Source: Kiritimatiellia bacterium
Lineage (GTDB): Bacteria; Verrucomicrobiota; Kiritimatiellia; RFP12; UBA1067
Length of the DNA: 35,838 nt
NCBI GenBank assembly: GCA_045540275.1
Contig: JAZQGX010000297.1
Span: forward strand, 1 to 35,838
Direction: 5' to 3'
Part shown: positions 12,518 to 27,111 of the stretch, in pieces
Numbering within the stretch: the stretch's first letter is position 1
Layout: each line of letters opens with the position of its first letter
Translations under genes and position numbers: made by a program
The notes under the pieces: generated by a model
Seen by the model: only the letters and a program-made list of their open reading frames with translations
Database searches by the model: none
What the model was told of the DNA's origin: nothing

Positions 12518-12850
12518 ATGATGGACATCTATGTTGGCAACCTTGCCTATGCAACGACGGATGATGGACTGAAGGCTGCATTTGCCGCTTATGGCGAAGT
12601 CACTTCTGCCCGTGTGGTTACCGATCGCATGAGCGGGCGCTCCAAGGGGTTCGGATTCGTCGAGATGCCCGACAATGCTCAGGCCCAAGCTGCAATCGAT
12701 GCACTTAACGGTCAGGATTTGGACGGACGCACCATTCGTGTAAACGAGTCTCAGCCCAAACCCCGCCGCGAAGGTGGCGGTCGCGGTTTCGGTCACCGTT
12801 CTGATCGTGGCGGCGGTTTTGGTGGTGGTCGCCGCGAGCAGCGCTGGTAA
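12518..12850 (+). CDS. RRM-type glycine-rich RNA-binding protein
   Basis: RNP2 is IYVGNL and RNP1 is KGFGFVEM. The tail is an RGG/glycine-rich C-terminus (GGGRGFGHRSDRGGGFGGGRREQRW). An AAGGA sequence precedes the ATG. The ORF-track start at 12401 is an in-frame upstream extension without an RBS. Confidence 0.85.
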   Translation: MMDIYVGNLAYATTDDGLKAAFAAYGEVTSARVVTDRMSGRSKGFGFVEMPDNAQAQAAIDALNGQDLDGRTIRVNESQPKPRREGGGRGFGHRSDRGGGFGGGRREQRW

Positions 12851-12866
12851 CGGCAATTTGCGGTAA

Positions 12867-12898
12867 CGCGCATCCTTTCACGGGATGCGCGTTTTTTT
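12867..12898 (+). terminator. Rho-independent terminator after the RRM gene
   Basis: Stem CGCGCATCC (12867-12875), loop TTTCACG, stem GGATGCGCG (12883-12891), then TTTTTTT. Confidence 0.65.
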
Positions 12899-12903
12899 CA
12901 CAG

Positions 12904-12933
12904 TTGAATTTTACCGGTTCGCTTTGATATAAT
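12904..12933 (+). promoter_or_regulatory. Candidate sigma70-type promoter for the glycosyltransferase gene
   Basis: TTGAAT (12904-12909), an 18-nt spacer, then an extended -10 TGATATAAT (12925-12933). This is sequence only, with no transcript evidence. Confidence 0.3.
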
Positions 12934-12962
12934 TTTGGTGTTAGTTAAAAGCATAGTTTGAA

Positions 12963-12996
12963 GCTTGCCGCTTTATCAGCAGTTGTGGCGGCAAGC
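12963..12996 (+). promoter_or_regulatory. Hairpin in the leader of the glycosyltransferase gene
   Basis: Stem GCTTGCCGC (12963-12971), a 16-nt loop, stem GCGGCAAGC (12988-12996). It lies between the candidate promoter and the start codon at 13033. Its function is unknown. Confidence 0.3.
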
Positions 12997-13032
12997 GCTG
13001 TGTTTTGTCATTTCAGGAAGATTGGTTAACCG

Positions 13033-14133
13033 ATGAAGGTAGCTTTGTTGCACTACTGGCTTACCAATATGCGCGGTGGCGAAAGAGTGTTGCAGACGAT
13101 AGCCTCGCTATTTGAAGAAGCCGACATTTATACGCATGCATGCATCCGTTCATCGCTTCCTGAATTTGCGAAATATCCCATTTGCGAATCGTTCGTGTCG
13201 CATCTCCCCTTTGGCCGCCGATTCCCGCAGCTTTATGTGCCGTTGATGCCGACCGCTTCGCGCCGGTTCAAGCTGGACGGGTATGATTTGATCGTTTCAA
13301 GCGAATCGGGCCCGATAAAAGGGATAGTCAAACCCAAGCACGCAAGACACATCTGCTACTGCCACACTCCGATGCGCTATGTTTGGGATTTGTTTGACGA
13401 GTACTATCGCGCCGCGCTGTTCCCGACTAAAGTGGCAATGCGCGTTTTCAGACGGTATTTGCAGAATTGCGATTTGAAGAGTGCGGAAAGCGTCGATGAA
13501 TTTATCGCCAACTCGCGTTTTGTGGCGGAGCGGATCAGACGCATATACGGTCGCGATTCGGCGGTGGTGCATCCGCCGGTGGACACGGCTTATTTTACGA
13601 CCTCGGGAAAAATCAAGTATCCGGTTTTCAATGGGGAGCCGTACTATCTTTTTGTCGGCGAGTTGCGTACCTACAAGCGTCCCCAGCTTGCGATAGAGGC
13701 TTGTTTGCGGATGAACCGCAGGCTGGTGGTGATCGGCAACGGCGAGATGCGCAAGCAGCTGCTGAAGATGGTGAGGGGGCGCGGCAAGATTGAGTTTTGC
13801 GGCGGGGTGACGCGCGATCAGCTCCGTTACGGCTATGCACACGCGCGAGCGCTGATATTCCCCGGAATCGAAGATTTCGGAATGGTGCCGGTTGAGGCGC
13901 AGGCGACAGGCACTCCGGTTTTGGCGTTGGGCGAGGGCGGAGCGTTGGAGACGGTCAGGCGCGGCGAGACGGGTTTGTTTTTCGAAGACGGCACGGTTGA
14001 CTCGCTGTGCGGCTGCATTGAGGAGTTTGAGGCGGCTGAATTCCGATCTGAGGCCTGCCGCCGCAATGCCCTGCAATTTTCCGAAGAAGTTTTCATTGAA
14101 AAGATCAAAGCGATACTATGCAATAGGCATTAG
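13033..14133 (+). CDS. GT4-family (GT-B) glycosyltransferase
   Basis: MKVALLHYWL.N.RGGERVL plus the C-terminal FPGIEDFGMVPVEAQATGTPVLALGEGGALETV, with its E-x7-E-like donor-binding region, is typical of group-1 glycosyltransferases. Confidence 0.8.
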   Translation: MKVALLHYWLTNMRGGERVLQTIASLFEEADIYTHACIRSSLPEFAKYPICESFVSHLPFGRRFPQLYVPLMPTASRRFKLDGYDLIVSSESGPIKGIVKPKHARHICYCHTPMRYVWDLFDEYYRAALFPTKVAMRVFRRYLQNCDLKSAESVDEFIANSRFVAERIRRIYGRDSAVVHPPVDTAYFTTSGKIKYPVFNGEPYYLFVGELRTYKRPQLAIEACLRMNRRLVVIGNGEMRKQLLKMVRGRGKIEFCGGVTRDQLRYGYAHARALIFPGIEDFGMVPVEAQATGTPVLALGEGGALETVRRGETGLFFEDGTVDSLCGCIEEFEAAEFRSEACRRNALQFSEEVFIEKIKAILCNRH

Positions 14134-14156: not shown

Positions 14157-17100
14157 ATGAGTATTGAGGATTCATTTGATTACAATCAGACGCTTACGGG
14201 GCTTGGTAAAATAGACCAATACGAAATTTTGCAGGAACTTGGCGGAGGCGGTTTCGGTTCGGTGTATCTCGCGCGAGACACCACCTCCAGGGTGCTGGTT
14301 GCAATCAAGGGGCTTCCCCCGTCGGTCAAGAACGATAACGAGGATATGGAAAATATCAGAAATAATTTTACCATCGTTCACGATCTGCACCACCCCCATA
14401 TCGCCGCTGCTCTAGTTCTGCATCGTGCGAACAAGGTTTGCTACTCCAAAGAGGAGGTGCGGCAAAAGCTTCGGGTGCTGGAAGGCGATCCTCTTCTCGT
14501 CATGGCATACGCTCCGGGTGTTACTCTCTCAAAATGGCGCAGGCAGTTTCCGAAAAATATCGTTCCAACTGATCAGGCGATAGAGATTGTTAAGCAGATC
14601 GCCTCCGCCTTGGATTATGCCCATGCTGAAAAAGTGCTTCATCGCGATGTAAAACCCGCCAATGTAATGATTGAAACCAAAGCCGACGGCTCAATAACCG
14701 CGCGCGTGCTGGATTTCGGTTTGGCGGCGGAAATCAGATCATCGCTCGGGCGCAGTGCCGGTCAGGTGCATGACACATCGGGCACTCGTCCGTATATGGC
14801 GCCTGAACAGTGGATTGGAGCTAGGCAGAGTAGTGCTACCGATCAGTATGCTTTGGCGGCGATGTTTTATGAACTTATTACCGGGGAGGTCCCGTTCGCT
14901 TCCGTTTTTCAGACGGGAGATGCGATAGTGATGATGAATGTTGTCAGGGGGCAGAATTTTGTTCCGCCGCCCGATATGCCGAAAAATACAGCCAAGGCGC
15001 TATCGAAAGCGCTTTCAAAAGATATTGATCAGCGCTTTCCCTGCTGCATGGATTTTGTCAAGGCCTTGCAGGGGGATTTTGCGACAACCGGCCGCAACAG
15101 CCGGACGGTCGTGAAAGAATCTAAACCGCTGCCGTTTGCGCGGATTTTCGCCGCCGTTTCAATTGTCGCGCTGGCGCTTGGCGGTGCGTGGTACGGATGG
15201 ATGAGATACGATCAGGCGGCGAAGGCGCGCAAACTCGAAGAAGAGCGTCTTCGCGGAGAAGTATACGATATGCAGGGCCGTGCCAGTCAGGTGCGTGAAC
15301 TCAATCAAAGTGCGGTGTGGAAAAATTGGAAGCATTTTCAATTTCATGCCAAAGAGTTGGAGTCTTCATACCGCGCCGGTGAAATGGCGTTGGAGAAAAA
15401 CGATTTCAATCTCGCCAAGGTGCAATTCCAGAAAGTGCGCGAGTATTGGCTGCTCTTGAGTTCGAACAAGGCGGACCGCGCACAGGCGCTACAGAAGTGC
15501 GAGGTGGTAAAGGTCGCCCGCCGTACCGCCGAAAAGGCCTCGGCCGGAGTGTTAGCGTCGAATGATTTTGCCGTTGCTGAAAGTATCGAGCGCAATGCCG
15601 ATGAATTGTTCGAAAACGGTTTGTTCAACAAAGCGATTGCGGAGTATGAGCAAGCGAATGCCGCTTTTGCAAAAGCGCTAAAGAGTGCTGAAAATGAAAA
15701 TAAACGCCGGATAAAAGCGAAAATAAAAGCAGACACCGAGGCGGCGCTGCTTGCGTTTAATGCAAATCCTCCCCGATATATCGAAGGCATGAAATATTCG
15801 GCAACGGCGGACAGGGAAAATCCCGATCTTCAGTTTCATCTCGCCCGCTGTTATTTTCATGGATACGGTGGGGTCGCGGTCAATAAGCCCGAGGCCGCAC
15901 GCTGGTATCTCAAATCGGCAAATCAGGGGTGTGCGGAAGCATTGGTGCCGATCGGTCTTATGTACGAGAAAGGTGATGGGGTTGCTCTGAATTATGCGGA
16001 AGCGGTAAAATGGTATCGCAAGGCGGCGGAAAAGGGAGATTGCTCCGGCGAGAATTATCTCGGTGAAATGTACGAGACGGGAGACGGCGTTGCCAAGGAT
16101 ATTGCAGAGGCCGTCAAGTGGTATCGCAAGGCGGCGGAAAAGGGATTTGCGCGGGGGCAACTCAATCTGGCTCGCATGTATGCCCAAGGCACCGGAGTTG
16201 AAGAAAATCAGCTGGAAGCCGCGTCCTGGTTCCGCAAAGCGGCAGAACAAGGTGAAGCGAAAGCGCAATACCTGCTCGGATTAATGTATGCCGAGGGGAA
16301 TGCGGTAGCAAAGGACAATAAGGAAGCCGTATCCTGGTTCCGCAAAGCGGCCGAGCAGGGTGATGCGTCGGCGGCTTTTTCTCTGGCTATTCATTGTGCC
16401 AACGGGCGCGGAGTCGATAAAGACCTGGCGGAAGCGGCGAAGTGGTATCGCAAGGCGGCCAATGTTGGACACGCTCAGGCGCAACGTAATCTCGGAATGG
16501 CGTATGAAGAAGGTGCGGGGGTTCCCAAAGATGCCGTCGAAGCATTTAAGTGGTATTATAAGTCGGCGGAACAAGGTGATAAATTCGCACAGTTTCTAGT
16601 CGCTTATTCCTATTTTAAAGGACAAGGGGTCAATGAAAACAAAACCGAGGCCGTTAAGTGGTATCTCAAGTCCGCAGAACAAGGAGTTGTAAGTGCGCAA
16701 CGGAACCTCGGCATATTGTACTTCGAGGGACAAGGAGTCGATAAAAATTATTCAGAGGCGGTCAAGTGGTCTCGCAAAGCAGCTGAAAAGGGAGATGCAG
16801 TCTCCCAATCGAATTTGGGGTGGGCGTATGAGCACGGTAACGGCATAGAACAGGACTATGCGGAAGCAGCAAAGTGGTATCGGAAGGCCGCCGAGCAAGG
16901 CAATGGGACTGCGCAGTGCAATCTGGGTGATCTCTATGAGAAGGGGAAAGGGGTCGATAAAAACATGGCCGAGGCGATGGCCTGGTATCAAAAGGCGGCG
17001 AAAAATGGCAGCGTGCGCGCCAAGGAGCGGCTTAGCGAGTTTACTTCTGCGTCCGATGTTGACAAGCGCTGTCGCGAGGGAATTACCATGCTTGGGTTGG

Positions 17101-17924
17101 AACCCGACAATGACTCCTTCCGCAATGGCCAGACGATATATATTTCTCCCGGCGACAACGCCAAGGAAAAAATTGAAAACAGCCCCGACTGGGCAACGAT
17201 ATTATTTGACAAGGGTGAATATGATTTGGGTTGGTTTAAGCTAAAGGGGAATAAGCGCATTCGAGGGAAGGGCATCGGTAAGACCATTATCAAAGGAAGG
17301 ATTAATTCCGGGAATGGAGGGAGTTATTTGATAGCGATGGATGCTACTTTTGTTATTGATAGCAGCACAAGTGGGAAATATCCAATTTGGGTGGATGAGT
17401 ACGGTAAAGCGGTGATAAAAAACTGTGGGCTAATCGGCGGAGGAATTTGGGCAAGCGATGGTAGCAAATGCGTTGTATCCCGTACCAATGTGAAAGATGC
17501 TTATGGCCGTGGAATTTCAATGGGCGATAATTCGAAAGTTTATGTTGCCGACTCAAAACTCAATGCTGCAAATGACAAATCGGCGGTATTGCATGGAGGA
17601 GCGCGAGTTGTAATGAAAAACACTCAGCTTTCTACGCAGAAACAAGATGAGAGTGTTTGTTATTTCGGATTTGAAAATACTGCTTTCTATTTAGAGAACT
17701 GCATATTAACAGGAGATGATAGAGGCATAGCTATAGGCAATGGCGCTAGCGGATGTCTTAAAAATGTTACCTTTCAACGATGCAAAGATAGTATAGAGAA
17801 TTATGGGGATATTGAACTATTTGGCAATACCTATCACGGTAATAAGTTCTCAAGTTCTTCCAAAGGCAAATATATCAATAAAGAGAACGGCAACTTTGAC
17901 GTAAATCCTAATTTCTTTAAATGA
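14157..17924 (+). CDS. Kinase 1: a Hanks-type Ser/Thr kinase with a TM helix, a coiled coil, about 12 Sel1 repeats and a C-terminal parallel beta-helix
   Basis: The kinase motifs are LGGGGFGSVYLARD, AIK, HRDVKPANVMI, DFGLA and GTRPYMAPEQ. The TM segment is IFAAVSIVALALGGAWYGW. The Sel1 repeats are units like AVKWYRKAAEKG...LG.MYE.G.GV.KD. The tail has PbH1-like turns (NCGLIGGGIWASDGSKCVV...GISMGDNSKVYVADSKL...GIAIGNGASGC). Confidence 0.85.
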   Translation: MSIEDSFDYNQTLTGLGKIDQYEILQELGGGGFGSVYLARDTTSRVLVAIKGLPPSVKNDNEDMENIRNNFTIVHDLHHPHIAAALVLHRANKVCYSKEEVRQKLRVLEGDPLLVMAYAPGVTLSKWRRQFPKNIVPTDQAIEIVKQIASALDYAHAEKVLHRDVKPANVMIETKADGSITARVLDFGLAAEIRSSLGRSAGQVHDTSGTRPYMAPEQWIGARQSSATDQYALAAMFYELITGEVPFASVFQTGDAIVMMNVVRGQNFVPPPDMPKNTAKALSKALSKDIDQRFPCCMDFVKALQGDFATTGRNSRTVVKESKPLPFARIFAAVSIVALALGGAWYGWMRYDQAAKARKLEEERLRGEVYDMQGRASQVRELNQSAVWKNWKHFQFHAKELESSYRAGEMALEKNDFNLAKVQFQKVREYWLLLSSNKADRAQALQKCEVVKVARRTAEKASAGVLASNDFAVAESIERNADELFENGLFNKAIAEYEQANAAFAKALKSAENENKRRIKAKIKADTEAALLAFNANPPRYIEGMKYSATADRENPDLQFHLARCYFHGYGGVAVNKPEAARWYLKSANQGCAEALVPIGLMYEKGDGVALNYAEAVKWYRKAAEKGDCSGENYLGEMYETGDGVAKDIAEAVKWYRKAAEKGFARGQLNLARMYAQGTGVEENQLEAASWFRKAAEQGEAKAQYLLGLMYAEGNAVAKDNKEAVSWFRKAAEQGDASAAFSLAIHCANGRGVDKDLAEAAKWYRKAANVGHAQAQRNLGMAYEEGAGVPKDAVEAFKWYYKSAEQGDKFAQFLVAYSYFKGQGVNENKTEAVKWYLKSAEQGVVSAQRNLGILYFEGQGVDKNYSEAVKWSRKAAEKGDAVSQSNLGWAYEHGNGIEQDYAEAAKWYRKAAEQGNGTAQCNLGDLYEKGKGVDKNMAEAMAWYQKAAKNGSVRAKERLSEFTSASDVDKRCREGITMLGLEPDNDSFRNGQTIYISPGDNAKEKIENSPDWATILFDKGEYDLGWFKLKGNKRIRGKGIGKTIIKGRINSGNGGSYLIAMDATFVIDSSTSGKYPIWVDEYGKAVIKNCGLIGGGIWASDGSKCVVSRTNVKDAYGRGISMGDNSKVYVADSKLNAANDKSAVLHGGARVVMKNTQLSTQKQDESVCYFGFENTAFYLENCILTGDDRGIAIGNGASGCLKNVTFQRCKDSIENYGDIELFGNTYHGNKFSSSSKGKYINKENGNFDVNPNFFK

Positions 17925-18013
17925 GCGTTATTACAATGATAAAAAATCAATCAGATGTAAATAAATATAAACAAATATAAACAAATACAATACTATGTAT
18001 CAAAAATAAACAG

Positions 18014-18042
18014 TTGACAATTGGTATAATTAATGATAATAT
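18014..18042 (+). promoter_or_regulatory. Candidate sigma70 promoter in an extremely AT-rich intergenic region
   Basis: TTGACA (18014-18019), a 17-nt spacer, then TAATAT (18037-18042) preceded by TG. The region 17925-18071 is about 20-25% GC with a tandem AAATATAAAC x2. It lies upstream of the HTH gene. Confidence 0.35.
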
Positions 18043-18074
18043 AACGTCATTAATTAAACAAACTAGGAGTCGTG

Positions 18075-18404
18075 ATGTCAAAAGATGGTGAGTATATGAG
18101 CCTGGAGGAGGTCGCCGACCTTCTCGGTGTTACATATCAATTGATTTATCGATTGGTACGCTCTGGTGAATTACCGGCAATTCGATTGGGGAAATTGTAT
18201 CGAGTTGCCCGCGAAGATCTGGAGCTGTATTTGCAGCGCAATAAGCGTTCTGCAAAATCCGGCGGTGTCTGCAGCGTGTGCGGAACATTTTACAGGTCGC
18301 AGGATTCGTTGGGCAATATTTGCACCGAAGACGGTTGCGGACAGCCGATTTGCTTTGACTGCTGGACGCGTCTGGGGATAAACAAGTGTAAAAATCATTC
18401 GTAG
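18075..18404 (+). CDS. HTH_17 (excisionase/MerR-type) DNA-binding protein with a C-terminal Cys-rich zinc-finger module
   Basis: LEEVADLLGVTYQLIYRLVRSGELPAIRLGKLYRVAREDLELYL matches the excisionase-family HTH consensus. The C-terminus has CSVCG...CTEDGCGQPICFDCW, i.e. 8 Cys. AGGAG lies 5 nt before the ATG at 18075. Confidence 0.7.
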   Translation: MSKDGEYMSLEEVADLLGVTYQLIYRLVRSGELPAIRLGKLYRVAREDLELYLQRNKRSAKSGGVCSVCGTFYRSQDSLGNICTEDGCGQPICFDCWTRLGINKCKNHS

Positions 18405-18480
18405 CTTTAAATGAGAGAGTCGCGGCATCTGATGATGCTGCAAATGTTGTTGGGTTAGGTAGAGCAATAAGGAGTTGGCA

Positions 18481-20268
18481 ATGGGAATCTTTTTCGATAT
18501 CTGTGATGCATTGATTGATCCTAGCACGGGACGCGCCTTGTCCGGCGAAGCACTTGAAAAAGCGATGGCCGATCGCAAATGGCCTCGTTGCGGAAACACA
18601 GTCAGTAAGCGTGCCCGCTTTTGCAATTCGTGCGGCAAACCGGCTCCCGGTGGATGGTGGAAGTGCCCGAATTGCAAAAAATGGATCGGCAACGATTCCC
18701 GCTTCTGTCCTCATTGCAACCAGCCGCTCTTTCCGGAAGAGCGTGCGGCGATTGCCGGCGGCGTCTGGTGCAAGGAACAGCGTTTCTTCGCACAGCGGTT
18801 TGAGGTGGGAGATATCAAGCGTCTCCTTTCCGACGGAATTTTAGTGCAGGAGGGGACCTTGGCGATTCTGCTCGACGCCGGGCAGATCCACGGCATCTTG
18901 GAACCCGGACGCCATAATCCTGATTCGCTTGCCCGTAAAATCAACTGGTTCGGTAATCCGCCGCCGCGCAGCGTGGTATTGGTGGACGCTGCGGAGATTG
19001 TCGTGCCTCTGCAGATTGAGGCGTTGCGCACCAGCGAACACTTCCCGATTGATTTTTACGGTGAAGTGATGCTCCGCTTCAAGGGCGACAAAGATGCGGC
19101 AAAAGCGTTTATCGGCAATATATTGGGTTCTGAACGCAGCTGCACCTTCAAGGAACTTTCTGACAATTTCATCCGTTCGGTTCGCATCGCCGTCGATGAA
19201 ATGGTCGTTGCCTCCACCATCGACGATTTGGTTCGCGATCCTGAACGCCGCATCCGATTGCAGGAGCGCATGAATGCCCGTCTTTCCGAAGATCTTGCCG
19301 CTTGCGGTTTGGAGCTTGTGCGGGTCTCTTCGGCGGAATTCACCGGTGAGCAATATGAAGAGTATGCCGAAAAACTGGGTAAGATCGATATTCAGCGGCG
19401 CGAACTTGAGTACAGTGCGGCATTGCGCAAGATGTTCGAAAGAGATTCGATGGCCCAGCACAAAGATGCCGACGCGCTTAAGCAATACAAGGAAATCGTC
19501 GACCACGAATACCGCATTTCCCGCGAGCGGCGCGATCACGAATTCAAACTGATTCAGCGCGAACACAGCCACGACGACATCGTCTATCAGCGTATGCTTG
19601 AAGTCGAAAATCTCGAACAGCAGCACAAGGTGGAAGACATCAAGCAGCACCACCAGCATGCGCAGGAATCGCGTCAGACCGAGCATGACATCTCAATCAA
19701 TTCGCGCATGGACGAATATGAGCGCGGCAAAAAGGTCGGGGACGCTCAGAGCGATGTGCAGGCGCAGGATATCCACACCCAGCAGGATGTTAAAGACGCC
19801 ATGGCGTGGCTCGACGTCAAAATGCGTAAAAACGCAATTAAACAACAGGACAAAGGACTAGACGCCGAACGCCGCAAGGGGATGTCCCCGCTTGAACTGC
19901 TCGCCGATATCGAAGATGCCCAGTTGCGCAATGATATTTTCGAGATGTACAAACTGCAGCTTCAGTCCGGAATGTCGCCCGAGCAGATCCTGGCGCAAAT
20001 GGGCAAGAGCCACTATGGACCGGAATACGAACAGTTCATGCAGAAAATGGCCGATCTCTACAAGGATAATTCCGACCGCGCCGAGCGCGGATTGGCAGGA
20101 CTCGTTTCCGCGCTTCGGGTGAACATCAACGGCTCTGTTTCGCAGGGCGCGCAGTACAATGTCGGAATCCACCAGCAGAATCACAACCAGAACTGCACGA
20201 GCATGAGCAACAGTCATTCTTCCTGGCAAAATATGAACAATTCGACTGAAGACAACAAGAATTCGTAA
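18481..20268 (+). CDS. Double zinc-ribbon plus SPFH/band-7 (flotillin/stomatin-like) domain protein with a long charged coiled-coil tail
   Basis: The N-terminus has CGNTV...CNSCG...CPNCKK...CPHC, which are two CxxC pairs twice. The middle region (GILVQEGTLAILLDAGQIHGILEPGRH...VVLVDAAEIVVPLQIEALRTSEHFPIDFYGEVMLRF...) has an SPFH-like pattern. The C-terminal ~250 aa are E/Q/H/K-rich heptad-like. AAGGAG lies 6 nt before the ATG at 18481. Confidence 0.65.
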   Translation: MGIFFDICDALIDPSTGRALSGEALEKAMADRKWPRCGNTVSKRARFCNSCGKPAPGGWWKCPNCKKWIGNDSRFCPHCNQPLFPEERAAIAGGVWCKEQRFFAQRFEVGDIKRLLSDGILVQEGTLAILLDAGQIHGILEPGRHNPDSLARKINWFGNPPPRSVVLVDAAEIVVPLQIEALRTSEHFPIDFYGEVMLRFKGDKDAAKAFIGNILGSERSCTFKELSDNFIRSVRIAVDEMVVASTIDDLVRDPERRIRLQERMNARLSEDLAACGLELVRVSSAEFTGEQYEEYAEKLGKIDIQRRELEYSAALRKMFERDSMAQHKDADALKQYKEIVDHEYRISRERRDHEFKLIQREHSHDDIVYQRMLEVENLEQQHKVEDIKQHHQHAQESRQTEHDISINSRMDEYERGKKVGDAQSDVQAQDIHTQQDVKDAMAWLDVKMRKNAIKQQDKGLDAERRKGMSPLELLADIEDAQLRNDIFEMYKLQLQSGMSPEQILAQMGKSHYGPEYEQFMQKMADLYKDNSDRAERGLAGLVSALRVNINGSVSQGAQYNVGIHQQNHNQNCTSMSNSHSSWQNMNNSTEDNKNS

Positions 20269-20280
20269 AAGTTTTTTCAA

Positions 20281-21801
20281 ATGAAGATCGTTTGTCCAAA
20301 TTGTGGAAAAAAAGTCGAGCACGGAAGGTTCTGCGAAAAATGCGGAAATCCTTTTGCCGCCGAATCGGATACTGGAAATGACCGTTCTTCGGAATGCCGG
20401 AGCTCTTTTGGCGAGGAGCCTACCCGCGGCGGCAGCGTCAATTCGGGCCAATCGGATTTTTCGCAGATGCCGATTTTGCATCAAGGTGATTGTTTTTCAA
20501 ATGTGCATGAGGGTTTGAAAAAGTCCCAGTCGGCCGGTGGAAATATCGCATTTCCGCAGACGGAAAACGCCACCTCGCTGTTTTTTTCCGATCAAAGCGG
20601 TCCTGAGTTGATGGTGGATCAGCTCTGCGTACAATTTGAGAATCTTTCCGGCATCGTGCGCTTCCTGTTCAATCCCGGGAATGCGCGAGACGGGCTGGAG
20701 AACATCGTGTTCAAATTTGAAAATCAGCTGACCGGGGAGTCTGTCTCGTCGCGCATGCTGCCGTTTCTCAATCGTTCGTGGGAGTTTTCTCTGCCGTTTC
20801 CCGCACAACGCGCCGGAGCAACGGTGTGGTCGGTTACCGGATTGTATGAGATTTCCGGCGTAAGGCACCAGATTGTGGGCGATATGCAGATGGTGGTTAT
20901 TCAACCTCGCGAAGCGCAGACCATCGCCGACAATCTTTGCATCAACATCAGCAACAACATCAACAACGGAAACGCCTCGGACGTCCATGTTTCGCAACGC
21001 GCGCTTGAGGATTTGACCAAGTTGGCCTCCGCGGAAAATCCTTTTGACGAACTTCGCCGCATCATATCAGGCAGGACTCGCTCATGGTGCGGATTGCCGC
21101 TGATCGACTCGAATACTTCCGGTCAAATGCCGCCGATGCCGCCACGGGCAAAAACGGAACGCATAACCCTGGATTTCGGCACTCATCGAGTCACTTTTCT
21201 TGGGGGGCGCACCATCCGCTTTGGACGAAACAGGGATGTAAACGACATTTCGCTGCGACCGGCGGCCTCCGCCACAGAAGATCAGAAGCGTCCGTATTGC
21301 ATGATTAGCCGCGCCCATTGCCACTTCGAACATCAGGGGCAGTCAGTTGTCATTTGCGACGGTCAGCGTGATGAGCGACAGGTGCTGGTGGCGTCAAGCG
21401 GCGGCACATTCTGGAATGGTGTCCGCATTGACGGTTCGATAAGGCTCAACGCGGGGGATCGGGGCGTGGTTTCATTTGCCGGCAGTTATAACGGCGCGAT
21501 CTCGCTTGACGTAAAGGTATGCAAATCGGCGGGGGATTGCAGTTCCTGTCCTCACGCGGGCAGACAATGGTGCGGAGACGGATTGCGCTCATCGCTCATG
21601 CTTACCCGCAGAGACGGCATACCGGAGAAATTCATTGCGGTCTGGAGCTGCTTCCGGTTGGAAGAGGCCGACCCGTCGTTTAACGGGGTTTTGATTTTCC
21701 GAAAAGACGGAGCCTTCGCCTGGCGGAAGGGGCGCAAGTGCGGATGGATTATTCCCGGGACATCGCAACAGACGGATTTTGGAACGGTAACTGTTAACTG
21801 A
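20281..21801 (+). CDS. Zinc-ribbon plus FHA-domain protein
   Basis: The N-terminus has CPNCGKKVEHGRFCEKCG. The FHA-like core is ITLDFGTHRVTFLGGRTIRFGRNRDVNDISL...MISRAHCHFEHQG..VVICDGQ...SSGGTFWNGVRIDG..RLNAGDRGVVSF, matching the G-R...SR.H......D.GS.NGT.vNG pattern. The middle ~250 aa and the Cys-rich C-terminus are unassigned. Confidence 0.55.
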   Translation: MKIVCPNCGKKVEHGRFCEKCGNPFAAESDTGNDRSSECRSSFGEEPTRGGSVNSGQSDFSQMPILHQGDCFSNVHEGLKKSQSAGGNIAFPQTENATSLFFSDQSGPELMVDQLCVQFENLSGIVRFLFNPGNARDGLENIVFKFENQLTGESVSSRMLPFLNRSWEFSLPFPAQRAGATVWSVTGLYEISGVRHQIVGDMQMVVIQPREAQTIADNLCINISNNINNGNASDVHVSQRALEDLTKLASAENPFDELRRIISGRTRSWCGLPLIDSNTSGQMPPMPPRAKTERITLDFGTHRVTFLGGRTIRFGRNRDVNDISLRPAASATEDQKRPYCMISRAHCHFEHQGQSVVICDGQRDERQVLVASSGGTFWNGVRIDGSIRLNAGDRGVVSFAGSYNGAISLDVKVCKSAGDCSSCPHAGRQWCGDGLRSSLMLTRRDGIPEKFIAVWSCFRLEEADPSFNGVLIFRKDGAFAWRKGRKCGWIIPGTSQQTDFGTVTVN

Positions 21802-21811: not shown

Positions 21812-22393
21812 ATGGGATTCCTGTTTTTTAAAAGCAAGCGTGAAAAAGAGCGTGCCGAACGCCGCGAACGCCGTCATGCGCTTCGCAAGGCCGAGAGTGC
21901 GGTCGATGAAGTGGTCTCGCGCATCAAAAGGATGGAAAAGGATGCCGACGCCGAATGGGAACGCGCCCGCGAAGCGACTAAAGAAGGCAAGCAGGCCGCG
22001 GCTCAGCGTGCTCTGACCAGTTATCGTTCGGCACAAGTGCTGGTTACCAAACTCGAGCAGAAAAAATGGGTCTTTAAGCAGGTTCTTATGAAACTTGAAA
22101 CCGCTGGAACCGACGCCGAGTTCGCCAAAGCGCTTGCGGCGGTCAACAGGGTTACCGATATCAATGTCGAGATGGTCGAAGACGTGTTTGACGAAGCCGG
22201 AGATCTTCTCGCCGAATCCGGCGACGTCGACAAGTTCTGGGCGCAGATGTACGGCAAGGAGGTCGAGGGTTCGAAAGTAGCGCTTCAAGACCATATTCCA
22301 TCAATGGAAGATTTGGAAAGGCATCTTCAGGAGGAAGTTGCAGGCAAAATTGCAAGCGGCATTTCACCGGAAGAGCTTGAGAAAGAGATTTAG
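21812..22393 (+). CDS. ESCRT-III (Snf7/CHMP/Vps2-like) family protein
   Basis: The product is 193 aa. It begins MGFLFF and has a basic N-terminal half (KSKREKERAERRERRHALRK) and an acidic C-terminal half. EATKEGKQAAAQRALTSYRSAQVLVTKLEQKK is colinear with the Vps2/CHMP2 alpha2 region (KMAKQGQMDAVRIMAKDLVRTRRYV). VNRVTDINVEMVEDVFDE...DLL matches the alpha4/alpha5 region. The C-terminal EDLERHLQEE is MIM1-like. GGAGG lies upstream of the ATG. Confidence 0.6.
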   Translation: MGFLFFKSKREKERAERRERRHALRKAESAVDEVVSRIKRMEKDADAEWERAREATKEGKQAAAQRALTSYRSAQVLVTKLEQKKWVFKQVLMKLETAGTDAEFAKALAAVNRVTDINVEMVEDVFDEAGDLLAESGDVDKFWAQMYGKEVEGSKVALQDHIPSMEDLERHLQEEVAGKIASGISPEELEKEI

Positions 22394-22467: not shown

Positions 22468-23577
22468 ATGCAATCGATAGGCGATAAGAAGAACGATCGA
22501 ATGTCTGCTTGCCAGACGGCGATGAAGGCTCGTGATTACGCCGCTGCCGCCAAGGCTGCGGCAGATGTGGCTGATTGCGCTGAAATTCTCGCCTCTCGTA
22601 CGACCGGTGTCGTGGCCAAGGCGTATGCCCGGGAAATGGAATCATGGCGGTCGCTGGCGAACAGGCTTGAAGCGAGAAAAGCCTGCTCCGCACCTCGCGA
22701 TGACGCTCGCCCACAGGCGGCGCAGGTTATTGCAGATGGCGATGAATGGCTTGTCGGCGAGAAACCGGATGTGACCTTCGATGACATCGCGGGGATGGAA
22801 GAGGCAAAGCGCATTATCGACGAGATGGTGATCTACCCCATGAAGTCGCCGGATAAGGCTCGCGCTTTGGGGCTTAACCCCGGCGGCGGCGTTTTGCTCT
22901 TCGGCCCTCCCGGAACCGGCAAAACCATGCTCGGGAAAGCGATAGCAGGGGCTCTCAACGCACCGTTCTACTATGCTTCCGGTGCAGATTTGCGCTCTAA
23001 ATGGTACGGTGAATCAGAGCAGCGCCTGTCAAAACTTCTCAATGCCGCAAAGTCACAGCCGGTGGCGGTGTTGTTTCTTGATGAAATCGAATCGCTGCTT
23101 CCGAAACGCACCGAATCATCGCACGCTGCCGACAATCGGGTGGTGACGCAATTTCTTTCCGATATCGGTGGGTTTGATGGATCGGAGAATCTGCTTCTGA
23201 TTCTCGGAGCGACCAATAAGCCGTGGAATATCGACGAAGCGGTTTTTCGTACCGGGCGTTTCGACGAAAAGATTTATGTCGCACCGCCGGATGCCGCCGC
23301 CAGACTCAAAATTCTGGAGTTGAACATCGCCGGGGCGCAGCTCGGTCCGGAAGTCGATTTAAACGAAATCGCCAAAGCGATGGAAGGGGCGTCGGGCTCG
23401 GATGTGTCGGCAGTAGTTTCCGCGGCCAAGCGTTCGGCATTGGCTCGCGCAATCCGGGAGGACAGCGATCCGGTTATCTGCAAAGAGGATTTGCAAGCGG
23501 CGCGTGAGCGTATTCCGCTTAGCATCACCGGTGAAATACTTGAGCCTTATGAGCGGTTTATGAAGGAGCGGCTTTGA
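22468..23577 (+). CDS. Vps4-like meiotic-clade AAA+ ATPase with an MIT-like N-terminal three-helix region
   Basis: Walker A is VLLFGPPGTGKTMLGKAIA. The diagnostic SKWYGESE(Q) corresponds to the Vps4/katanin/spastin SKW(V/L)GESEK. Walker B is VLFLDEIESL. LGATNKPWNIDEAVFRTGRFDEKIYVAPPD and ...MEGASGSDVSAVV are present. The C-terminal helix EDLQAARERIPLSITGEILEPYERFMKE resembles the Vps4 C-terminus. The N-terminus has the MIT-like helices AAAAKAAADVADCAEILASR...AKAYAREMESWRSLANRLE. Confidence 0.8.
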   Translation: MQSIGDKKNDRMSACQTAMKARDYAAAAKAAADVADCAEILASRTTGVVAKAYAREMESWRSLANRLEARKACSAPRDDARPQAAQVIADGDEWLVGEKPDVTFDDIAGMEEAKRIIDEMVIYPMKSPDKARALGLNPGGGVLLFGPPGTGKTMLGKAIAGALNAPFYYASGADLRSKWYGESEQRLSKLLNAAKSQPVAVLFLDEIESLLPKRTESSHAADNRVVTQFLSDIGGFDGSENLLLILGATNKPWNIDEAVFRTGRFDEKIYVAPPDAAARLKILELNIAGAQLGPEVDLNEIAKAMEGASGSDVSAVVSAAKRSALARAIREDSDPVICKEDLQAARERIPLSITGEILEPYERFMKERL

Positions 23578-24482
23578 AACCTGTATGTTGCAAGTGCGGA
23601 AAAACCCTGCCCAATCGCTGGGCGGTTGGCAAGCGGGTGGTGGTCGACGGAGTTGAACAGTGCTATTGCCATTTGCATGCGGTCGATAAGCGAGGCGAAC
23701 AGATGGCAACCGGCAGAGCAATGAAGAGAGAGGAGGTTGTCGCGATGAGTGACAATGAACAAAATGACAAATCCGGCACTCGGGAGGAAGAATTGACGAA
23801 AAACGCCTCAGGGGAGCTTGTTAAAAAGGCCTGGGGCGAGTGCTCGTCGCTTGTTTCAAAACTGGGCGGCGGTATTAAGGTTGTATGGGCAAAAATACAC
23901 CCCGACCGTTCGCCGGAGGCGATGCTGTCGAGCCTCGACGGCGATTTGGCGGAAAACCGGCGCAGGCTGGCAGAAATCAAGCCCGAGCTGGATCGAGCCT
24001 ATCGCGATATCGTCGCCGGGAAAAAGGATTACCTGTCGGCGCCACCGGCGCGTCAGCGTATTCTTAAAATCGAGTTGCAGAGCCTGTTGGCACGCTATAA
24101 ATCACTCGAACGTGAGTTCGGGATTCTTTGCGAAAACGAACGATCCATCGAGATGGTCCGCGGCAGATTTCTTGAGGTGCTTGCGCACGGTATGCGCGGC
24201 AAACTCAACGTCGATACCGTTGACCGCCTGACCGACAGCATCGAGGAGCAGGTCGATGAGGCCGAGGATGTGCAGGACGCGCTGTCAGATCTCGAGCGCG
24301 CCGGCAAAAGAAGCGAACGAGATACTGGAGATTTTGATTCGGAACTCGCCGATTTTGACGGCGAACTGGGTTTGGTCGAAGATGTTAAAAAGGAGGAGAA
24401 AAATGAAGAAAAGAACAATATTGATATCGTCACTGATAAGCGCGGTACTGCTCTCGAGGAATCTGACGGCGGGATTGCGTGA
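23574..24482 (+). CDS. Zinc-ribbon plus ESCRT-III/PspA-superfamily-like coiled-coil protein with an acidic MIM-like tail
   Basis: It has a TTG start that overlaps the Vps4-like stop by 4 nt (TTGA). The N-terminus has CCKCGK...CYCHLH. The central helices are LSSLDGDLAENRRRLAEIKPELDRAYRDIVAGKKDYLSAPPARQRILKIELQSLLARYKSLEREFGIL. The C-terminus has DEAEDVQDALSDLERAGKR, which resembles the Vps2 MIM1 DLEERLKNLRR, then DFDSELADFDGELGLVEDV. The fold assignment is tentative. Confidence 0.4.
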   Translation: MKPVCCKCGKTLPNRWAVGKRVVVDGVEQCYCHLHAVDKRGEQMATGRAMKREEVVAMSDNEQNDKSGTREEELTKNASGELVKKAWGECSSLVSKLGGGIKVVWAKIHPDRSPEAMLSSLDGDLAENRRRLAEIKPELDRAYRDIVAGKKDYLSAPPARQRILKIELQSLLARYKSLEREFGILCENERSIEMVRGRFLEVLAHGMRGKLNVDTVDRLTDSIEEQVDEAEDVQDALSDLERAGKRSERDTGDFDSELADFDGELGLVEDVKKEEKNEEKNNIDIVTDKRGTALEESDGGIA

Positions 24483-25623
24483 AATTTCGTATGCGGTTGA
24501 GGATGCCGCATATCAGGCGGCAAGTAGACTTGCCGAGGATCCACGCGCCGAAAAAGAGATAAAGCGAATTGCATTTGTCAAACTTTGGACGGGCGATTCT
24601 ACCAACTCGATTCCCAACAGCGACGGATTGGTAGCGGTGTTTGAATCGGCATTGGGAGCGGTACCTGCACCCTTCAGCATCGTGCTGCACTCGAATCGCG
24701 ACGACCAGTGGTCGCTTATCGACAGCGTTTTCGATCAGATCGCCGATTTCGACGATTATAATCCGGCGACCTCTCCGCAGCTGAGCAAATTCGAACTTTG
24801 CGACACGCTGCTGCTTGCCAAGATGATCAACGGCATCGACGGCGGCGACAAAGGGGTCAGCTCCGTGCGTATTGCGCTGAAGGCGATACAGGTCAAAACC
24901 GCCCGTCAGATCTGGAGCGCGGTGGTGGAAGGCTCCTACGACGCGCGCACTCAGCCCGACAACGAGAAGCTCAGCTATTTCTCGCGCAAGGCGCTTGAGC
25001 AGGCGGCTGCCGATGCGGTCGAAAAACTTCCGCGCTCGCTCGACGGCTACGGTGTGCTGATCACGCCGATTCAAGGCGCTGGCGGCAAAGCATTGACCCA
25101 GATGTTCATGAATGCCCTGACCGCCGCGGGCCGCCAGGACAAGGTTCGCCTTTACGATTTGCCCAACGGTAACGCCTCCGACCGTATGCTCGGACGCTAC
25201 CTGTGGGAGCGTACTGGTTCGGGCAAAGCGCTTGCTCCGTCGGCGATCAAGCAGATTAAGAGCAAGACCGGTGCCGAAGGGAAGCTCGCGATCTTGACCG
25301 GTATGGTCGTTACCGGTCGCATCTATCCCGACACCTGGGTCGATCCCACGGGCGAGCCGGTTAACACCCTCACCGGTTCCTATTCCGACGCAAGAAAAAA
25401 TCCGACCAGCTTTGAGATTATTGCGGACTTGAAGTTCCGTGATGTCAACGATGGCTTCCGTGTCGTGGCGGCCGTCTCTGCCAATGGTGTTTACAAGCGC
25501 GATATCGGCGGCGATGTCACCGAGCAGCTCAGAAGTTTTGTGACCGTTCGCAATATCGCGGTCGTTGCTGTAATCCTGATATTGATCTGGTTCGTATGCA
25601 AATATGCATTGCGCGTCCGTTAA
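24403..25623 (+). CDS. Exported protein with a signal peptide and a C-terminal TM anchor (function unknown)
   Basis: AGGAGG lies 8 nt upstream of the ATG at 24403. The signal peptide is MKKRTILISSLISAVLLSRNLTA. The C-terminal hydrophobic helix is IAVVAVILILIWFV. The ORF-track start at 24256 is an RBS-less upstream extension that overlaps the previous gene. The - strand ORF 24430-25731 is rejected as a shadow. Confidence 0.5.
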   Translation: MKKRTILISSLISAVLLSRNLTAGLREISYAVEDAAYQAASRLAEDPRAEKEIKRIAFVKLWTGDSTNSIPNSDGLVAVFESALGAVPAPFSIVLHSNRDDQWSLIDSVFDQIADFDDYNPATSPQLSKFELCDTLLLAKMINGIDGGDKGVSSVRIALKAIQVKTARQIWSAVVEGSYDARTQPDNEKLSYFSRKALEQAAADAVEKLPRSLDGYGVLITPIQGAGGKALTQMFMNALTAAGRQDKVRLYDLPNGNASDRMLGRYLWERTGSGKALAPSAIKQIKSKTGAEGKLAILTGMVVTGRIYPDTWVDPTGEPVNTLTGSYSDARKNPTSFEIIADLKFRDVNDGFRVVAAVSANGVYKRDIGGDVTEQLRSFVTVRNIAVVAVILILIWFVCKYALRVR

Positions 25624-25651
25624 CGTTGCATGAAGTTGAATGGAGAACATC

Positions 25652-26413
25652 ATGAAAAAAAGTATTTTTGCGATTTTTGCCGCTGCTCTGATCTCGGGAT
25701 GCGTAACCCATCTGGCCGATCCGGAGGTCAAGACCTACGTCAACGGTACAGTGCAGCCGCTTCGTGTGCTGGTATCGATTGATGGCGGCAAAGACCAATC
25801 CAGCGCGTCGTATCAGCTCAGCGGCTACCTTCAGTCGCATCTTGAAAGCGCATTGGCCGCTGCGGGCTATCGCGTAGTCTATGAAGGGAACCATGAAATC
25901 CTCGTTTCGACTTGCGGTCAGGTGACGTGTCAGGAAAGAAATAAGCGCGGAACCCGTTCGGTGTACTATGGCGATGCGGATGTCCAGGTGACCCGTGCGG
26001 CATTTGAAAACACCATGCGCAACGAGACGATGCGCGATATTGTCGCCCGTCAGCGTTTCGATGTTCAGGGCGGACAGGCGCGTACGCCGACCGAGGCAAT
26101 CAAATCGGTGGCGGATACGCTCGCTCCTGAGCTTTCGAAGTGGACGGCCGCCTCGGTGACCAAAGTTGCCTCGAAGCTGGAATGCTGCCAGGTCACTATC
26201 AGCAACGCATGGACATATCGCGGCGAAGAGGACTACCCATCCCGTTTTACCGCTACGGTTAACCGGATGCGCGGCATCTACAGCTGCCGCATTCTCTCCA
26301 CTGACAACGTAAACCGTTCGTTTCGCGCTGAGATCATCTACGACCGTGATATGTATCCCGACGGCATCGTAAACGGTCTTATCGCCACCAGCGGCCTCAA
26401 TCTCTACCGATAA
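25652..26413 (+). CDS. Predicted lipoprotein (function unknown)
   Basis: MKKSIFAIFAAALISGC has a lipobox (LISGC). No recognisable domain is present. Confidence 0.5.
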   Translation: MKKSIFAIFAAALISGCVTHLADPEVKTYVNGTVQPLRVLVSIDGGKDQSSASYQLSGYLQSHLESALAAAGYRVVYEGNHEILVSTCGQVTCQERNKRGTRSVYYGDADVQVTRAAFENTMRNETMRDIVARQRFDVQGGQARTPTEAIKSVADTLAPELSKWTAASVTKVASKLECCQVTISNAWTYRGEEDYPSRFTATVNRMRGIYSCRILSTDNVNRSFRAEIIYDRDMYPDGIVNGLIATSGLNLYR

Positions 26414-26442: not shown

Positions 26443-27111
26443 ATGAAAAAGATGATATGTGTAATCTTTGGAATCGTTATTTGCGGGGTGGCGTTCGGCC
26501 AGGGTGCCGGCCGGGGCGTCTACAAACCGGGACAAACCCATCCTCATCGCGGCGGTGCGGTACACCGCTCCGATTTTCATCGTGCTCCGCACAAGGTCGA
26601 CCGCAAGGTTTACGATCGCACGGCCGGGTACGAAGGACATGTGGCATATTCCCCGTTCGCTTTGAGTCTGGGCAGTTTGTCGATGCCTTGCGGCCGTCAC
26701 TGGGCAATCGGAGGCGCCCGTCTGAATCTGGGGCTGCCGGGGTGGACCTCGGTTTATGACAGTGTATACGGATTTGATATCGGCCTTTCCGGTGAGTCCA
26801 CCATCGAGACCGGCGGTATTGCCGTAAATGCGTTCAACAATACCACGCGCGATTTCTACGGAGTGGCGGTTGCGGGATTGTGGAACCGCACTTACGGAAG
26901 AGACACCCAGGCTCTTCAAATCGCCTCGTTGTGCAATTTCGCCGAAAATATCAGCGGCGTGCAGATCGGACTCTTCAACCGTGCCCGGGTTTTGCACGGA
27001 TTGCAGATAGGCCTTTGCAATTCCGCACCTTCGGGCAGCGGGTTGCAGATAGGCGTTTGGAATGCAAATTCTAACGGTGTGGGCAGCCCGGTTATTGGCA
27101 TCGTTTTTTAA
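26443..27111 (+). CDS. Secreted repeat protein with G(L/V)QIG(L/V)(F/C/W)N motifs
   Basis: The signal peptide is MKKMICVIFGIVICGVAFGQ. GVQIGLFN, GLQIGLCN and GLQIGVWN recur at about 16-18-aa spacing near the C-terminus. AAGGA precedes the ATG. Confidence 0.45.
   Translation: MKKMICVIFGIVICGVAFGQGAGRGVYKPGQTHPHRGGAVHRSDFHRAPHKVDRKVYDRTAGYEGHVAYSPFALSLGSLSMPCGRHWAIGGARLNLGLPGWTSVYDSVYGFDIGLSGESTIETGGIAVNAFNNTTRDFYGVAVAGLWNRTYGRDTQALQIASLCNFAENISGVQIGLFNRARVLHGLQIGLCNSAPSGSGLQIGVWNANSNGVGSPVIGIVF

Follow-up and report, generated by a model that had tools for sequence, protein, structure and literature searches.

An operon of gut and rumen Kiritimatiellae combining Snf7-type proteins, an AAA ATPase, a cytosolic SPFH protein and a zinc-ribbon FHA protein: a candidate membrane-remodelling system

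Gene content and transcription of the operon

The stretch analyzed here (the window) comprises the 35,838 nucleotides of contig JAZQGX010000297.1 from the Kiritimatiellia bacterium assembly GCA_045540275.1. It carries an operon in which genes for a DNA-binding regulator, an SPFH protein and an FHA protein precede genes for two ESCRT-III-like proteins, named here Snf7A and Snf7B, and an AAA ATPase. The first gene (18075-18404, with an alternative GTG start at 18072) encodes an HTH_17 protein of the excisionase/MerR-like type. It is followed by the genes of an SPFH/Band_7 protein (18481-20268), a putative adaptor of 506 aa with a zinc ribbon and an FHA domain (ZnR-FHA, 20281-21801), Snf7A (21812-22393), the ATPase (22468-23577) and Snf7B (23574-24482). 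Further downstream are genes for an exported protein (24403-25623), a lipoprotein (25640-26413), a secreted protein (26443-27111) and two M48/U49 (Lit-like) zinc metallopeptidases (27138-29054). Receptor Ser/Thr kinases are encoded at 14157-17924, 29051-32638 and 33410-35497. All relevant genes lie on the + strand, and between 18404 and 29054 they are separated by gaps of 6-76 bp or overlap by 4 bp. Transmembrane (TM) segments were absent from the six cytoplasmic proteins, while the kinases displayed a kinase-TM-ectodomain layout.

The preliminary description of this DNA had placed HTH, SPFH and FHA domains upstream of ESCRT-like genes, in agreement with the Pfam matches to HTH_17, Band_7 and FHA, which all exceeded their cut-offs. 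It had further assigned four adjacent zinc-module proteins to 18075-21801. Three of them are indeed contiguous, but the fourth (Snf7B, 23574-24482) lies outside this interval and two genes intervene.

The HTH protein (HTH_17, E 1e-15; ribosome-binding site AGGAG at 18066) was encoded first in all loci compared. It is preceded by an AT-rich gap of 147 bp (17925-18071), which contains a sigma-70-type promoter at 18014-18042 on the + strand. This promoter consists of TTGACA, a 17-nt spacer and TAATAT with an upstream TG, giving the extended -10 element (TG)ATAATAT. With 10 of 12 consensus positions it tied for the best match in 20 kb (13-33 kb), was the only such match on the + strand and was the only top consensus match with an extended -10 TG. 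The upstream regions of 10 loci, whose FHA proteins are only 35-51% identical to that of the window, were aligned. The -35 hexamer and the extended -10 element (TATGATAAnAT) were conserved in this alignment and their flanks were not, so that the promoter suggested earlier at this position is now footprinted. The same footprinting revealed an upstream direct repeat (GTAAACAAATATAAACAAA; 17955-17987, + strand), conserved in nine of the 10 aligned regions, again without conservation of the flanks. Its unit reads GTAAA[CT]AAATATAAACAAA and is located about 25-45 bp upstream of the -35 hexamer; the window has one extra copy. The repeat could be an operator for the HTH_17 protein or an UP element.

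Terminator-like sites were not in excess (34, against 25.3 +/- 5.2 in shuffled sequences). A hairpin at 18422-18441 was considered as an internal terminator and rejected, as its T-tail is poor and the HTH-SPFH gap in other loci is only about 13-35 bp. The conserved promoter and repeat, the short HTH-SPFH gaps elsewhere and the terminator count at shuffle level together make co-transcription from the promoter at 18014-18042 well supported in silico. The HTH_17 gene was also considered as an excisionase of a mobile element. This reading was discarded, since there is no integrase and the gene is always the first of the operon behind a conserved promoter.

Properties of the encoded proteins and their zinc modules

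Snf7 was the sole Pfam family matched by Snf7A, in 10 of 10 orthologues (best E 7.6e-7), with the window sequence alone reaching 23.8 bits, below the Snf7 cut-off of 27.3. At least 150 relatives were found among 1.84 billion representatives (84 of them at E < 1e-10), mostly of about 210 aa and aligning end to end. A family profile of 104 sequences was searched against the PDB. It matched yeast Snf7 (E 1.4e-14), the Heimdallarchaeal (Asgard) ESCRT-IIIB over the full length (E 2.4e-9, residues 17-210 to 10-216), CHMP3 (4e-4), CHMP1B (9e-4), Shrub (1e-3) and CHMP2A (3e-3). Neither PspA nor Vipp1 was matched by this profile in the PDB search. Significance was obtained only with the 104-sequence profile, as PDB searches with the single sequence or a 10-sequence profile were not significant. 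Also conserved in Snf7A is its N-terminus, where a hydrophobic stretch (MGFLFFK) precedes basic residues. Judged by the profile matches to Snf7, ESCRT-IIIB and the CHMPs, and by the lack of any to PspA or Vipp1, Snf7A is a true Snf7-type ESCRT-III protein.

The second protein, Snf7B, consists of an N-terminal zinc module and a helical hairpin predicted to have an ESCRT-III-like fold. Its AlphaFold model (predicted local distance difference test score, pLDDT, 78.7) comprises the zinc module, a disordered linker, three short helices, a hairpin of 42 + 53 residues, and alpha-4 and alpha-5. The top Foldseek match of the model was the Asgard ESCRT-IIIB (E 0.05). Matches of the sequence to Pfam Snf7 (E 0.025) and of its profile to CHMP4B, the sole PDB match (E 9.7), were not significant. 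Alignment with the Snf7A family by hhalign was not significant either (P 0.03-0.06), and narrow profiles of the two proteins showed no similarity.

The ATPase has a single AAA cassette of the classical clade (AAA, E 8e-38), predicted from Pfam and NCBIfam to be Cdc48/CdvC-like. Its NCBIfam scores were 209 bits for PAN, 208 for CDC48 and 202 for CdvC, the last against a cut-off of 650; the CdvC alignment covered residues 36-366 and reached residue 11 in the ATPase of the distant locus L060. In five of five relatives the ranking was CDC48 > CdvC > PAN. The cassette is preceded by a 72-aa, three-helix-sized N-terminal region and a linker, and this region was conserved across relatives from the PVC (Planctomycetes-Verrucomicrobia-Chlamydiae) superphylum. 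Architecture and context suggest a Vps4-like ATPase, with scores short of those that would assign orthology to CdvC/Vps4.

In the SPFH protein, Band_7 (PF01145) was detected at E 1.1e-9 and 39.0 bits (cut-off 23.6) over aa 124-313 of the TTG-start open reading frame, corresponding to 18844-19413 on the + strand; a Pfam Band_7 match is also precomputed for its orthologues. The start is the ATG at 18481 (MGIFFD) behind an AAGGAG ribosome-binding site rather than the TTG at 18475. All 40 orthologues (40/40) share the MG[ILF]F.D start and two N-terminal ribbons. No hydrophobic segment was found, so the protein lacks the N-terminal membrane anchor of flotillins, stomatins and HflK/C. A phmmer search with it against PDB sequences gave no SPFH match, and the ribbon region weakly resembled the LapB rubredoxin domain. 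The C-terminal tail (19465-20265) had been described as an E/Q/H-rich coiled coil of about 250 aa. It is a polar tail as stated, but it has 267 aa, is richer in Q, D, E and S (Q 11%, D 9%, E 8%, S 8%) than in H (5%), and its coiled-coil nature is presumed from composition.

The FHA domain of the ZnR-FHA protein (21148-21525, + strand) scored 29.7 bits in Pfam (cut-off 20.7). Of the residues expected to bind phospho-threonine, G315 never varies, conservation of R316 and S343 is 90% or more, and H346 and N379-G380 are present. The model (pLDDT 80.4) begins with the ribbon (1-28), a disordered S/T-rich linker (30-104) and an Ig/C2-like beta-sandwich (109-207), and continues with helices (209-263), the FHA domain (about 290-415) and a C-terminal beta-domain (438-505). 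The protein is rare: a collection of 5.8 billion proteins contained just 71 clusters of it, each at E < 1e-57.

Cysteine motifs had been reported earlier at the N-termini of the SPFH, FHA and second ESCRT-III-like proteins and at the C-terminus of the regulator, and had been taken as one recurring zinc ribbon. The motifs are all real and conserved. They are no chance occurrence, as they are retained in every orthologue found. The HTH C-terminus is an 8-ligand module and the Snf7B N-terminus a CxxC...CxxH, and neither is a ribbon. Profile-profile comparison with hhalign ruled out a single ribbon family. On these alignments the modules are of two families: the SPFH and FHA proteins carry a classical ribbon, the HTH protein and Snf7B a predicted RING/FYVE-like finger.

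The classical family includes the double ribbon of the SPFH protein (18502-18717, + strand) and the ribbon of the FHA protein (20293-20346, + strand; C5xxC8-x10-C19xxC22). Ribbon 1 of the SPFH protein is formed in the window by C8...C37/C48xxC51, its first knuckle being split by a 28-residue insertion that is also present in the closest relatives; ribbon 2 is C62xxC65/C76xxC79. They matched DZR (32.9 bits, cut-off 27.3), Zn_ribbon_3 (31.1, cut-off 27) and Zn_Ribbon_1 (29.2, cut-off 25). All FHA orthologues keep CxxC-x10/11-CxxC. The FHA ribbon reached 15.1 bits, under the Pfam cut-offs, and aligned with the SPFH ribbons at P 5.7e-8 and 1e-8. The mutual alignments of the three ribbons had probabilities of about 95% and P values of 5.7e-8 to 6.7e-9 (ribbon 1 to ribbon 2, 6.7e-9). 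Alignments between the two families covered one CxxCG knuckle only (5-21 columns, P 1e-2 to 1e-4). The classical ribbons, which are generic and of the rubredoxin type, are probably small docking or membrane-proximal units.

The putative binuclear finger of the HTH protein (18270-18398, + strand) has eight ligands arranged as CxxC-x13-C-x4-C-x4-CxxC-x8-CxxH (C67, C70, C84, C89, C94, C97, C106, H109), which are invariant in 38 of 38 unique orthologue C-termini. In the Snf7B of the window (23586-23678, + strand; C5xxC8...C32xxH35) the pattern is CxxC-x21-CxxH, kept as CxxCG..LPN[KR]WA..CxxH in 117 homologues. The last ligand pair is modelled at the start of a helix, in a treble-clef-like shape. 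The other of the two locus types found (type II, below) has a Snf7B with a complete 8-ligand module, CxxCG-x12-C-x4-C-x4-C-x2-H-x7-C-x2-H, invariant in eight sequences. This module aligned over its whole length with the HTH C-terminus (probability 97%, P 8.1e-11, 44 columns) and with the Snf7B N-terminus of the window type (type I) at probability 99.5% and P 6.6e-23. Type I proteins have lost ligand pairs 2 and 4 together and retained pairs 1 and 3, the pattern expected of a cross-brace binuclear finger losing one zinc site. The Snf7B N-terminus of type I thus appears to be a half-site remnant of the finger with one zinc site. Pfam matches of the finger were all sub-threshold (FYVE 0.006, zf-RING_2 0.016, Prok-RING_1 0.035, and B-box, HIT and AN1), and a database search with its 47-aa alignment returned no matches.

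The same finger (CSVCG...CPEC..PICFDCW..C..H) terminates two tandem Pro/Ala-rich low-complexity proteins encoded on metagenome contigs outside the gut Kiritimatiellae set (L056, 21-1718; L057, 73-198), directly upstream of a kinase gene of the type with an FGE-sulfatase ectodomain (STK-FGE). Within the fetched loci its carriers are the HTH regulator, Snf7B and these P/A-rich proteins.

Conservation of the operon and its wider relatives

A scan of 185,579 species representatives with two short conserved peptide patterns detected five loci, all in uncultured metagenome-assembled genomes (MAGs). By their labels, three were from Kiritimatiellae, one from Verrucomicrobia bacterium UBA3624 and one from an 'uncultured bacterium' (RUG14821); the source names refer to sheep, cattle and goat gut. 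About 50 more loci came from looking up contigs and from scanning metagenomes with the HTH protein as seed. About 48 were non-redundant and fell into two divergent types, so the neighbourhood is conserved beyond this genome.

The preliminary view of these genes as one unit held as well. All 34 non-redundant loci that extend far enough beyond the HTH gene have the SPFH gene next, and wherever space allowed the order was HTH > SPFH > FHA, with one frameshifted assembly as the exception. In type I loci, to which the window belongs, the order continues FHA > Snf7A > [kinase] > AAA > Snf7B > exported > lipoprotein > secreted > M48, while in type II it is FHA > lipoprotein-like genes > Snf7B > Snf7A > AAA > M48. 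Among 13 loci with at least 9.5 kb downstream, Snf7A and AAA were present in 10 and Snf7B in 10. The expected co-occurrence with ESCRT-like genes was therefore frequent but not obligatory, two loci having none within 10 kb and one Snf7B only. Snf7A was 71-86% identical across the window-like type I loci and about 50% in the rearranged type II loci; in the window-like loci AAA identity was 71-75%, and that of the FHA protein only 33-51%. Of the 10 long loci with an AAA gene, most have it beside an Snf7-type gene; in L001, L009, L024 and L033 the two are separated by a kinase or another gene.

The exported genes at 24403-26413, proposed earlier as partners, are part of the unit: the exported protein, the lipoprotein and the secreted protein were conserved downstream in type I loci, and almost all loci that reach far enough downstream, L004 and L046 among them, have an M48-like peptidase. 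The exported protein has a signal-like N-terminus and a C-terminal TM anchor (aa 434-452 of the long open reading frame), and the lipoprotein an LPAM_1 match and an LISGC lipobox. The secreted protein of 222 aa has a signal peptide, matches no Pfam family and ends in repeated GLQIG motifs (G[LV]QIG[LV].N); it was kept in type I loci. The peptidases matched Pfam Peptidase_M48, the first having an N-terminal TM helix.

Receptor kinases of the STK-FGE type flanked most loci. In the window both downstream kinases are of this type by Pfam, with a TM helix and an extracytoplasmic FGE-sulfatase domain (C-type-lectin fold), which is C-terminal in the second. Their kinase domains (29267-29566 and 33488-33787) are 90% identical, suggesting recent duplication or gene conversion. 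The two genes have a related 69-nt segment in common (30143-30211, 34385-34453), and 24-nt short tandem repeats encode a repeated motif near the N-terminus of the first (29113-29204). The upstream kinase (14157-17924, + strand) combines a cytoplasmic kinase domain (Pkinase, E 8.7e-41), one TM helix (aa 325-348) and extracytoplasmic 11 Sel1 repeats with a beta-helix. In L024 and L046, homologues of it lie within the operon or adjoin it.

On contig L009, genes for a reverse transcriptase (E 5e-38) and an HRDC accessory protein separate an STK-FGE kinase gene from that of the ZnR-FHA protein. A template repeat of 144 nt (3254-3397) is 85% identical to a variable repeat at the 3' end of the kinase gene (1481-1624), and about 20 of the 21 mismatches fall at template adenines. 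By these features the element (1467-3718) is a diversity-generating retroelement (DGR) that diversifies the kinase ectodomain. There is no reverse transcriptase in the window, and a DGR was found in one of about 50 loci (L009). In L010 a DUF4062-HATPase_c_4 gene (12077-13951), with weak PADLOC matches to SIR2/pAgo-associated proteins, directly follows Snf7A. A kinase gene occupies the same position elsewhere, so this seems an insertion hotspot.

Upstream of the operon, positions 12-8088 of the window encode a set resembling type II secretion or type IV pilus systems (pseudopilins with N_methyl motifs, GspK-like and PilN-like proteins and a 929-aa secretin). Sugar-metabolism and glycosyltransferase genes intervene, and adjacency of this set to the operon was absent in other loci.

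Distant Snf7A relatives adjoin the same AAA type in a Planctomycetia MAG (L015) and on metagenome contigs (L017/L018, L059 and L060), where in L015, L017, L059 and L060 the AAA gene comes directly after the Snf7-type genes. Clusters of this kind contain 2-4 paralogues of Snf7 and a TM protein with some 290 aa, together with DUF4384, Peptidase_C14 or C1, and proteins fused to an FGE-sulfatase domain. They resemble the window in their Snf7 paralogues, in an AAA protein with an N-terminal DKK...DY motif and in the FGE-sulfatase sensors and peptidases nearby. They differ from it in having DUF4384, Peptidase_C14/C1 and the TM protein in place of the zinc-module triad; the HTH finger, ZnR-SPFH and ZnR-FHA proteins were absent from the clusters of L015, L017, L059 and L060. 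As such Snf7-AAA clusters occur without zinc-module proteins, the Snf7-AAA core is, on present gene content, a broader family found in Kiritimatiellae, one MAG labelled Planctomycetia and unassigned metagenome contigs, and the triad is an addition of the Kiritimatiellae.

Proposed function and comparison with known systems

The operon comprises about 12-15 genes and belongs to uncultured Kiritimatiellae of the gut and rumen. From sequence evidence, we put at roughly 55% the probability that it encodes a kinase-controlled, SPFH-scaffolded ESCRT-III-like system for membrane remodelling or repair. Receptor Ser/Thr kinases would detect a signal outside the cytoplasm with their Sel1/beta-helix or FGE-sulfatase ectodomains and then phosphorylate threonines on components of the system, the S/T-rich disordered linkers being candidate targets. 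The ZnR-FHA adaptor would bind the phospho-threonine. The TM-less SPFH protein may act as a sub-membrane scaffold that recruits the Snf7-type polymers, by analogy with YdjI/SamI and PspA of B. subtilis, and the Cdc48/CdvC-like ATPase would remodel or recycle the Snf7 polymer. The exported protein, the lipoproteins and the M48-like peptidases would act at the envelope side. Through the finger common to the HTH protein and Snf7B, regulator and polymer subunit might compete for, or bind, the same partner, which would give a PspA/PspF-like feedback from assembly state to transcription.

Several observations weigh against this proposal. The assignment of Snf7B to ESCRT-III is by fold shape alone, and the modelled protein is only fold-compatible. 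The AAA core of the ATPase scores about equally against PAN, Cdc48 and CdvC. No MIT domain was detected in it by Pfam or by the PDB profile search, where the profile matched a Sel1-repeat protein, and there was no Pfam match to Vps4_C. No phosphatase was found in the window. L004 (RUG14821) and L046 have no Snf7 or AAA gene within 10-13 kb and keep HTH-SPFH-FHA, the envelope genes and M48, and L034 carries Snf7B only. These exceptions indicate that the HTH-SPFH-FHA genes are linked more tightly among themselves than to the ESCRT-like genes, and the triad may work without the ESCRT-like part. The classical ribbons, finally, belong to very common Pfam families, and their likeness may lack meaning specific to the system.

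A rival view is that the zinc modules are ordinary structural segments with no common or system-specific role, each protein acting through its main domain. For the classical ribbons this is possible, though on balance improbable. The SPFH and FHA ribbons match the ubiquitous Pfam families DZR, Zn_ribbon_1 and Zn_ribbon_3, the cross-family hhalign P values of 1e-3 to 1e-4 derive from a lone CxxCG knuckle, and type I Snf7B has lost half of its finger yet stays conserved. However, the module is kept in 40/40 SPFH, all FHA and 38/38 HTH proteins, and zinc ribbon, SPFH and ESCRT-III-family proteins recur together in Firmicutes and Methanobacteriales (PMC11237479, PMC11188069). The binuclear finger lies above no Pfam cut-off, and its carriers in the fetched loci point to a dedicated role. 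A more far-reaching version of the remodelling proposal, in which PVC bacteria own a complete phospho-regulated ESCRT-III/Vps4-type scission machine with an SPFH scaffold, an FHA adaptor, a receptor-kinase trigger (hypervariable in at least one lineage) and a finger wired to its own transcription factor, is distinctly doubtful.

It is unlikely that the operon is instead an anti-phage or inter-cellular conflict system, with variable kinases detecting an invader or competitor, Lit-like M48/U49 peptidases (caspase- or papain-like in relatives) as effectors, and the ESCRT-III/AAA part repairing or remodelling the membrane. The M48-like proteins weakly match Lit, peptidase_U41, CapP and RmrA (PADLOC, E 1e-5 to 1e-4) and the NCBIfam Lit family, and relatives carry Peptidase_C14 and Peptidase_C1-lectin genes. 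The DGR of L009, which mutates the FGE-sulfatase end of the adjacent kinase, would suit such a system, as would accessory inserts at some loci, for example DUF4062-HATPase_c_4 in L010, and the varying genomic surroundings of the loci. Yet no PADLOC 2.0 system model was matched, the matches being generic (mad1 HTH, IetA/TRIP13 AAA) or the weak ones to Lit, CapP and RmrA only, and the DGR occurs in only one of about 50 loci. The core is strongly conserved (Snf7A 71-86%, AAA 71-75%), which is unusual for fast-evolving defence genes, there is no nuclease, NADase or pore-forming effector, and the conflict-system surveys of the Aravind group do not mention Snf7 or ESCRT. An ESCRT-based machine for cell division or vesicle budding, comparable to archaeal Cdv or the euryarchaeal ESCRT variants, seems very unlikely. 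Snf7-type paralogues with a Cdc48/CdvC-like AAA protein and the very high conservation of Snf7A would fit it, and FHA, Ser/Thr kinases and SPFH-ZnR proteins accompany archaeal ESCRT systems too (PMC11188069). Against this, the Snf7/AAA genes are missing from some loci, which argues against an essential division role, and no CdvA/PRC-barrel or ESCRT-I/II-like component was recognised. The rarity of the system, with five loci in 185,579 species representatives (all uncultured MAGs, scanned on two short peptide patterns), also speaks against it.

The membrane-remodelling proposal can be compared with several described systems. In B. subtilis PspA owes its membrane localisation to the cytosolic SPFH protein YdjI/SamI, acting with YdjG and YdjH (PMC8581546; bioRxiv 10.64898/2026.02.06.704340), and YdjG and the SPFH partner bear zinc ribbons (PMC11237479). 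The pspA-ydjGHI (samGHI) operon thus resembles the present one in joining an ESCRT-III-superfamily gene with a TM-less cytosolic SPFH protein and zinc-ribbon partners, the polymer-forming protein of B. subtilis requiring the SPFH protein to reach the membrane (PMC8581546; PMC11237479; bioRxiv 10.64898/2026.02.06.704340). In contrast, the polymer proteins here are of the Snf7 type and not PspA_IM30, and the operon also encodes a dedicated AAA ATPase, an FHA adaptor and receptor Ser/Thr kinases. No homologues of YdjG or YdjH (TPM) were seen. The ribbons here are N-terminal and on the SPFH protein itself.

Archaeal ESCRT variants carry FHA proteins, Ser/Thr kinases or SPFH-coiled-coil-zinc-ribbon proteins (PMC11188069). 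Compared by their published description, the non-Asgard variants (Halo_FHA, Meth_adaptin and Main clades; Makarova et al. 2024, PMC11188069) resemble the operon in having Vps4-like and ESCRT-III genes with one of these accessory themes, and phosphorylation control is proposed for both. The present host, however, is a bacterium of the PVC superphylum, and all three themes are united in one operon. In its FHA protein the FHA domain is joined by a zinc ribbon, an Ig-like domain and a beta-domain at the C-terminus, and no MIT domain was detected in its ATPase. Sulfolobus ArnA, which combines a zinc finger and FHA, is a small regulator of archaellum expression; the protein described here has 506 aa, two further beta-domains and a link with SPFH and ESCRT-III-like genes. 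In the PspA/PspF system of Proteobacteria an ESCRT-III-family protein and the transcription factor of its operon appear physically coupled. A comparable coupling is suggested here by the common finger, but only from a shared domain, and the regulator is an HTH_17 protein, not a sigma-54 enhancer-binding AAA protein.

Ravi et al. reported sporadic bacterial Snf7-clade genes adjoining AAA ATPases (PMC11237479), while reviews credit bacteria with only PspA/Vipp1-type ESCRT-III and no clear Vps4 (PMC7615534). We found neither this operon, nor all three themes together in a bacterium, nor the HTH-Snf7B finger described in the literature. As far as sequence comparison goes, the associations of ESCRT-III, SPFH and zinc ribbons in Firmicutes and archaea were known, and this bacterial operon, the combination of the three themes and the common finger appear to be new.

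The conserved operon places Snf7-type proteins and a Cdc48/CdvC-like AAA protein in bacteria, to which reviews deny them, and it unites FHA, Ser/Thr kinases and SPFH with zinc ribbons, accessory themes that are separate in the archaeal ESCRT variants. If functional, it would provide a compact, genetically defined setting for the control of ESCRT-III assembly by phosphorylation and an SPFH scaffold, and would define a zinc finger without significant Pfam match that links a transcription factor to a polymer subunit. It would also lead one to ask whether genes were exchanged between rumen archaea and Kiritimatiellae or whether this combination was assembled independently. Should the scission-machine reading be true, regulated ESCRT function could be studied in a bacterial model, which might also serve for the unusual membrane biology of PVC bacteria.

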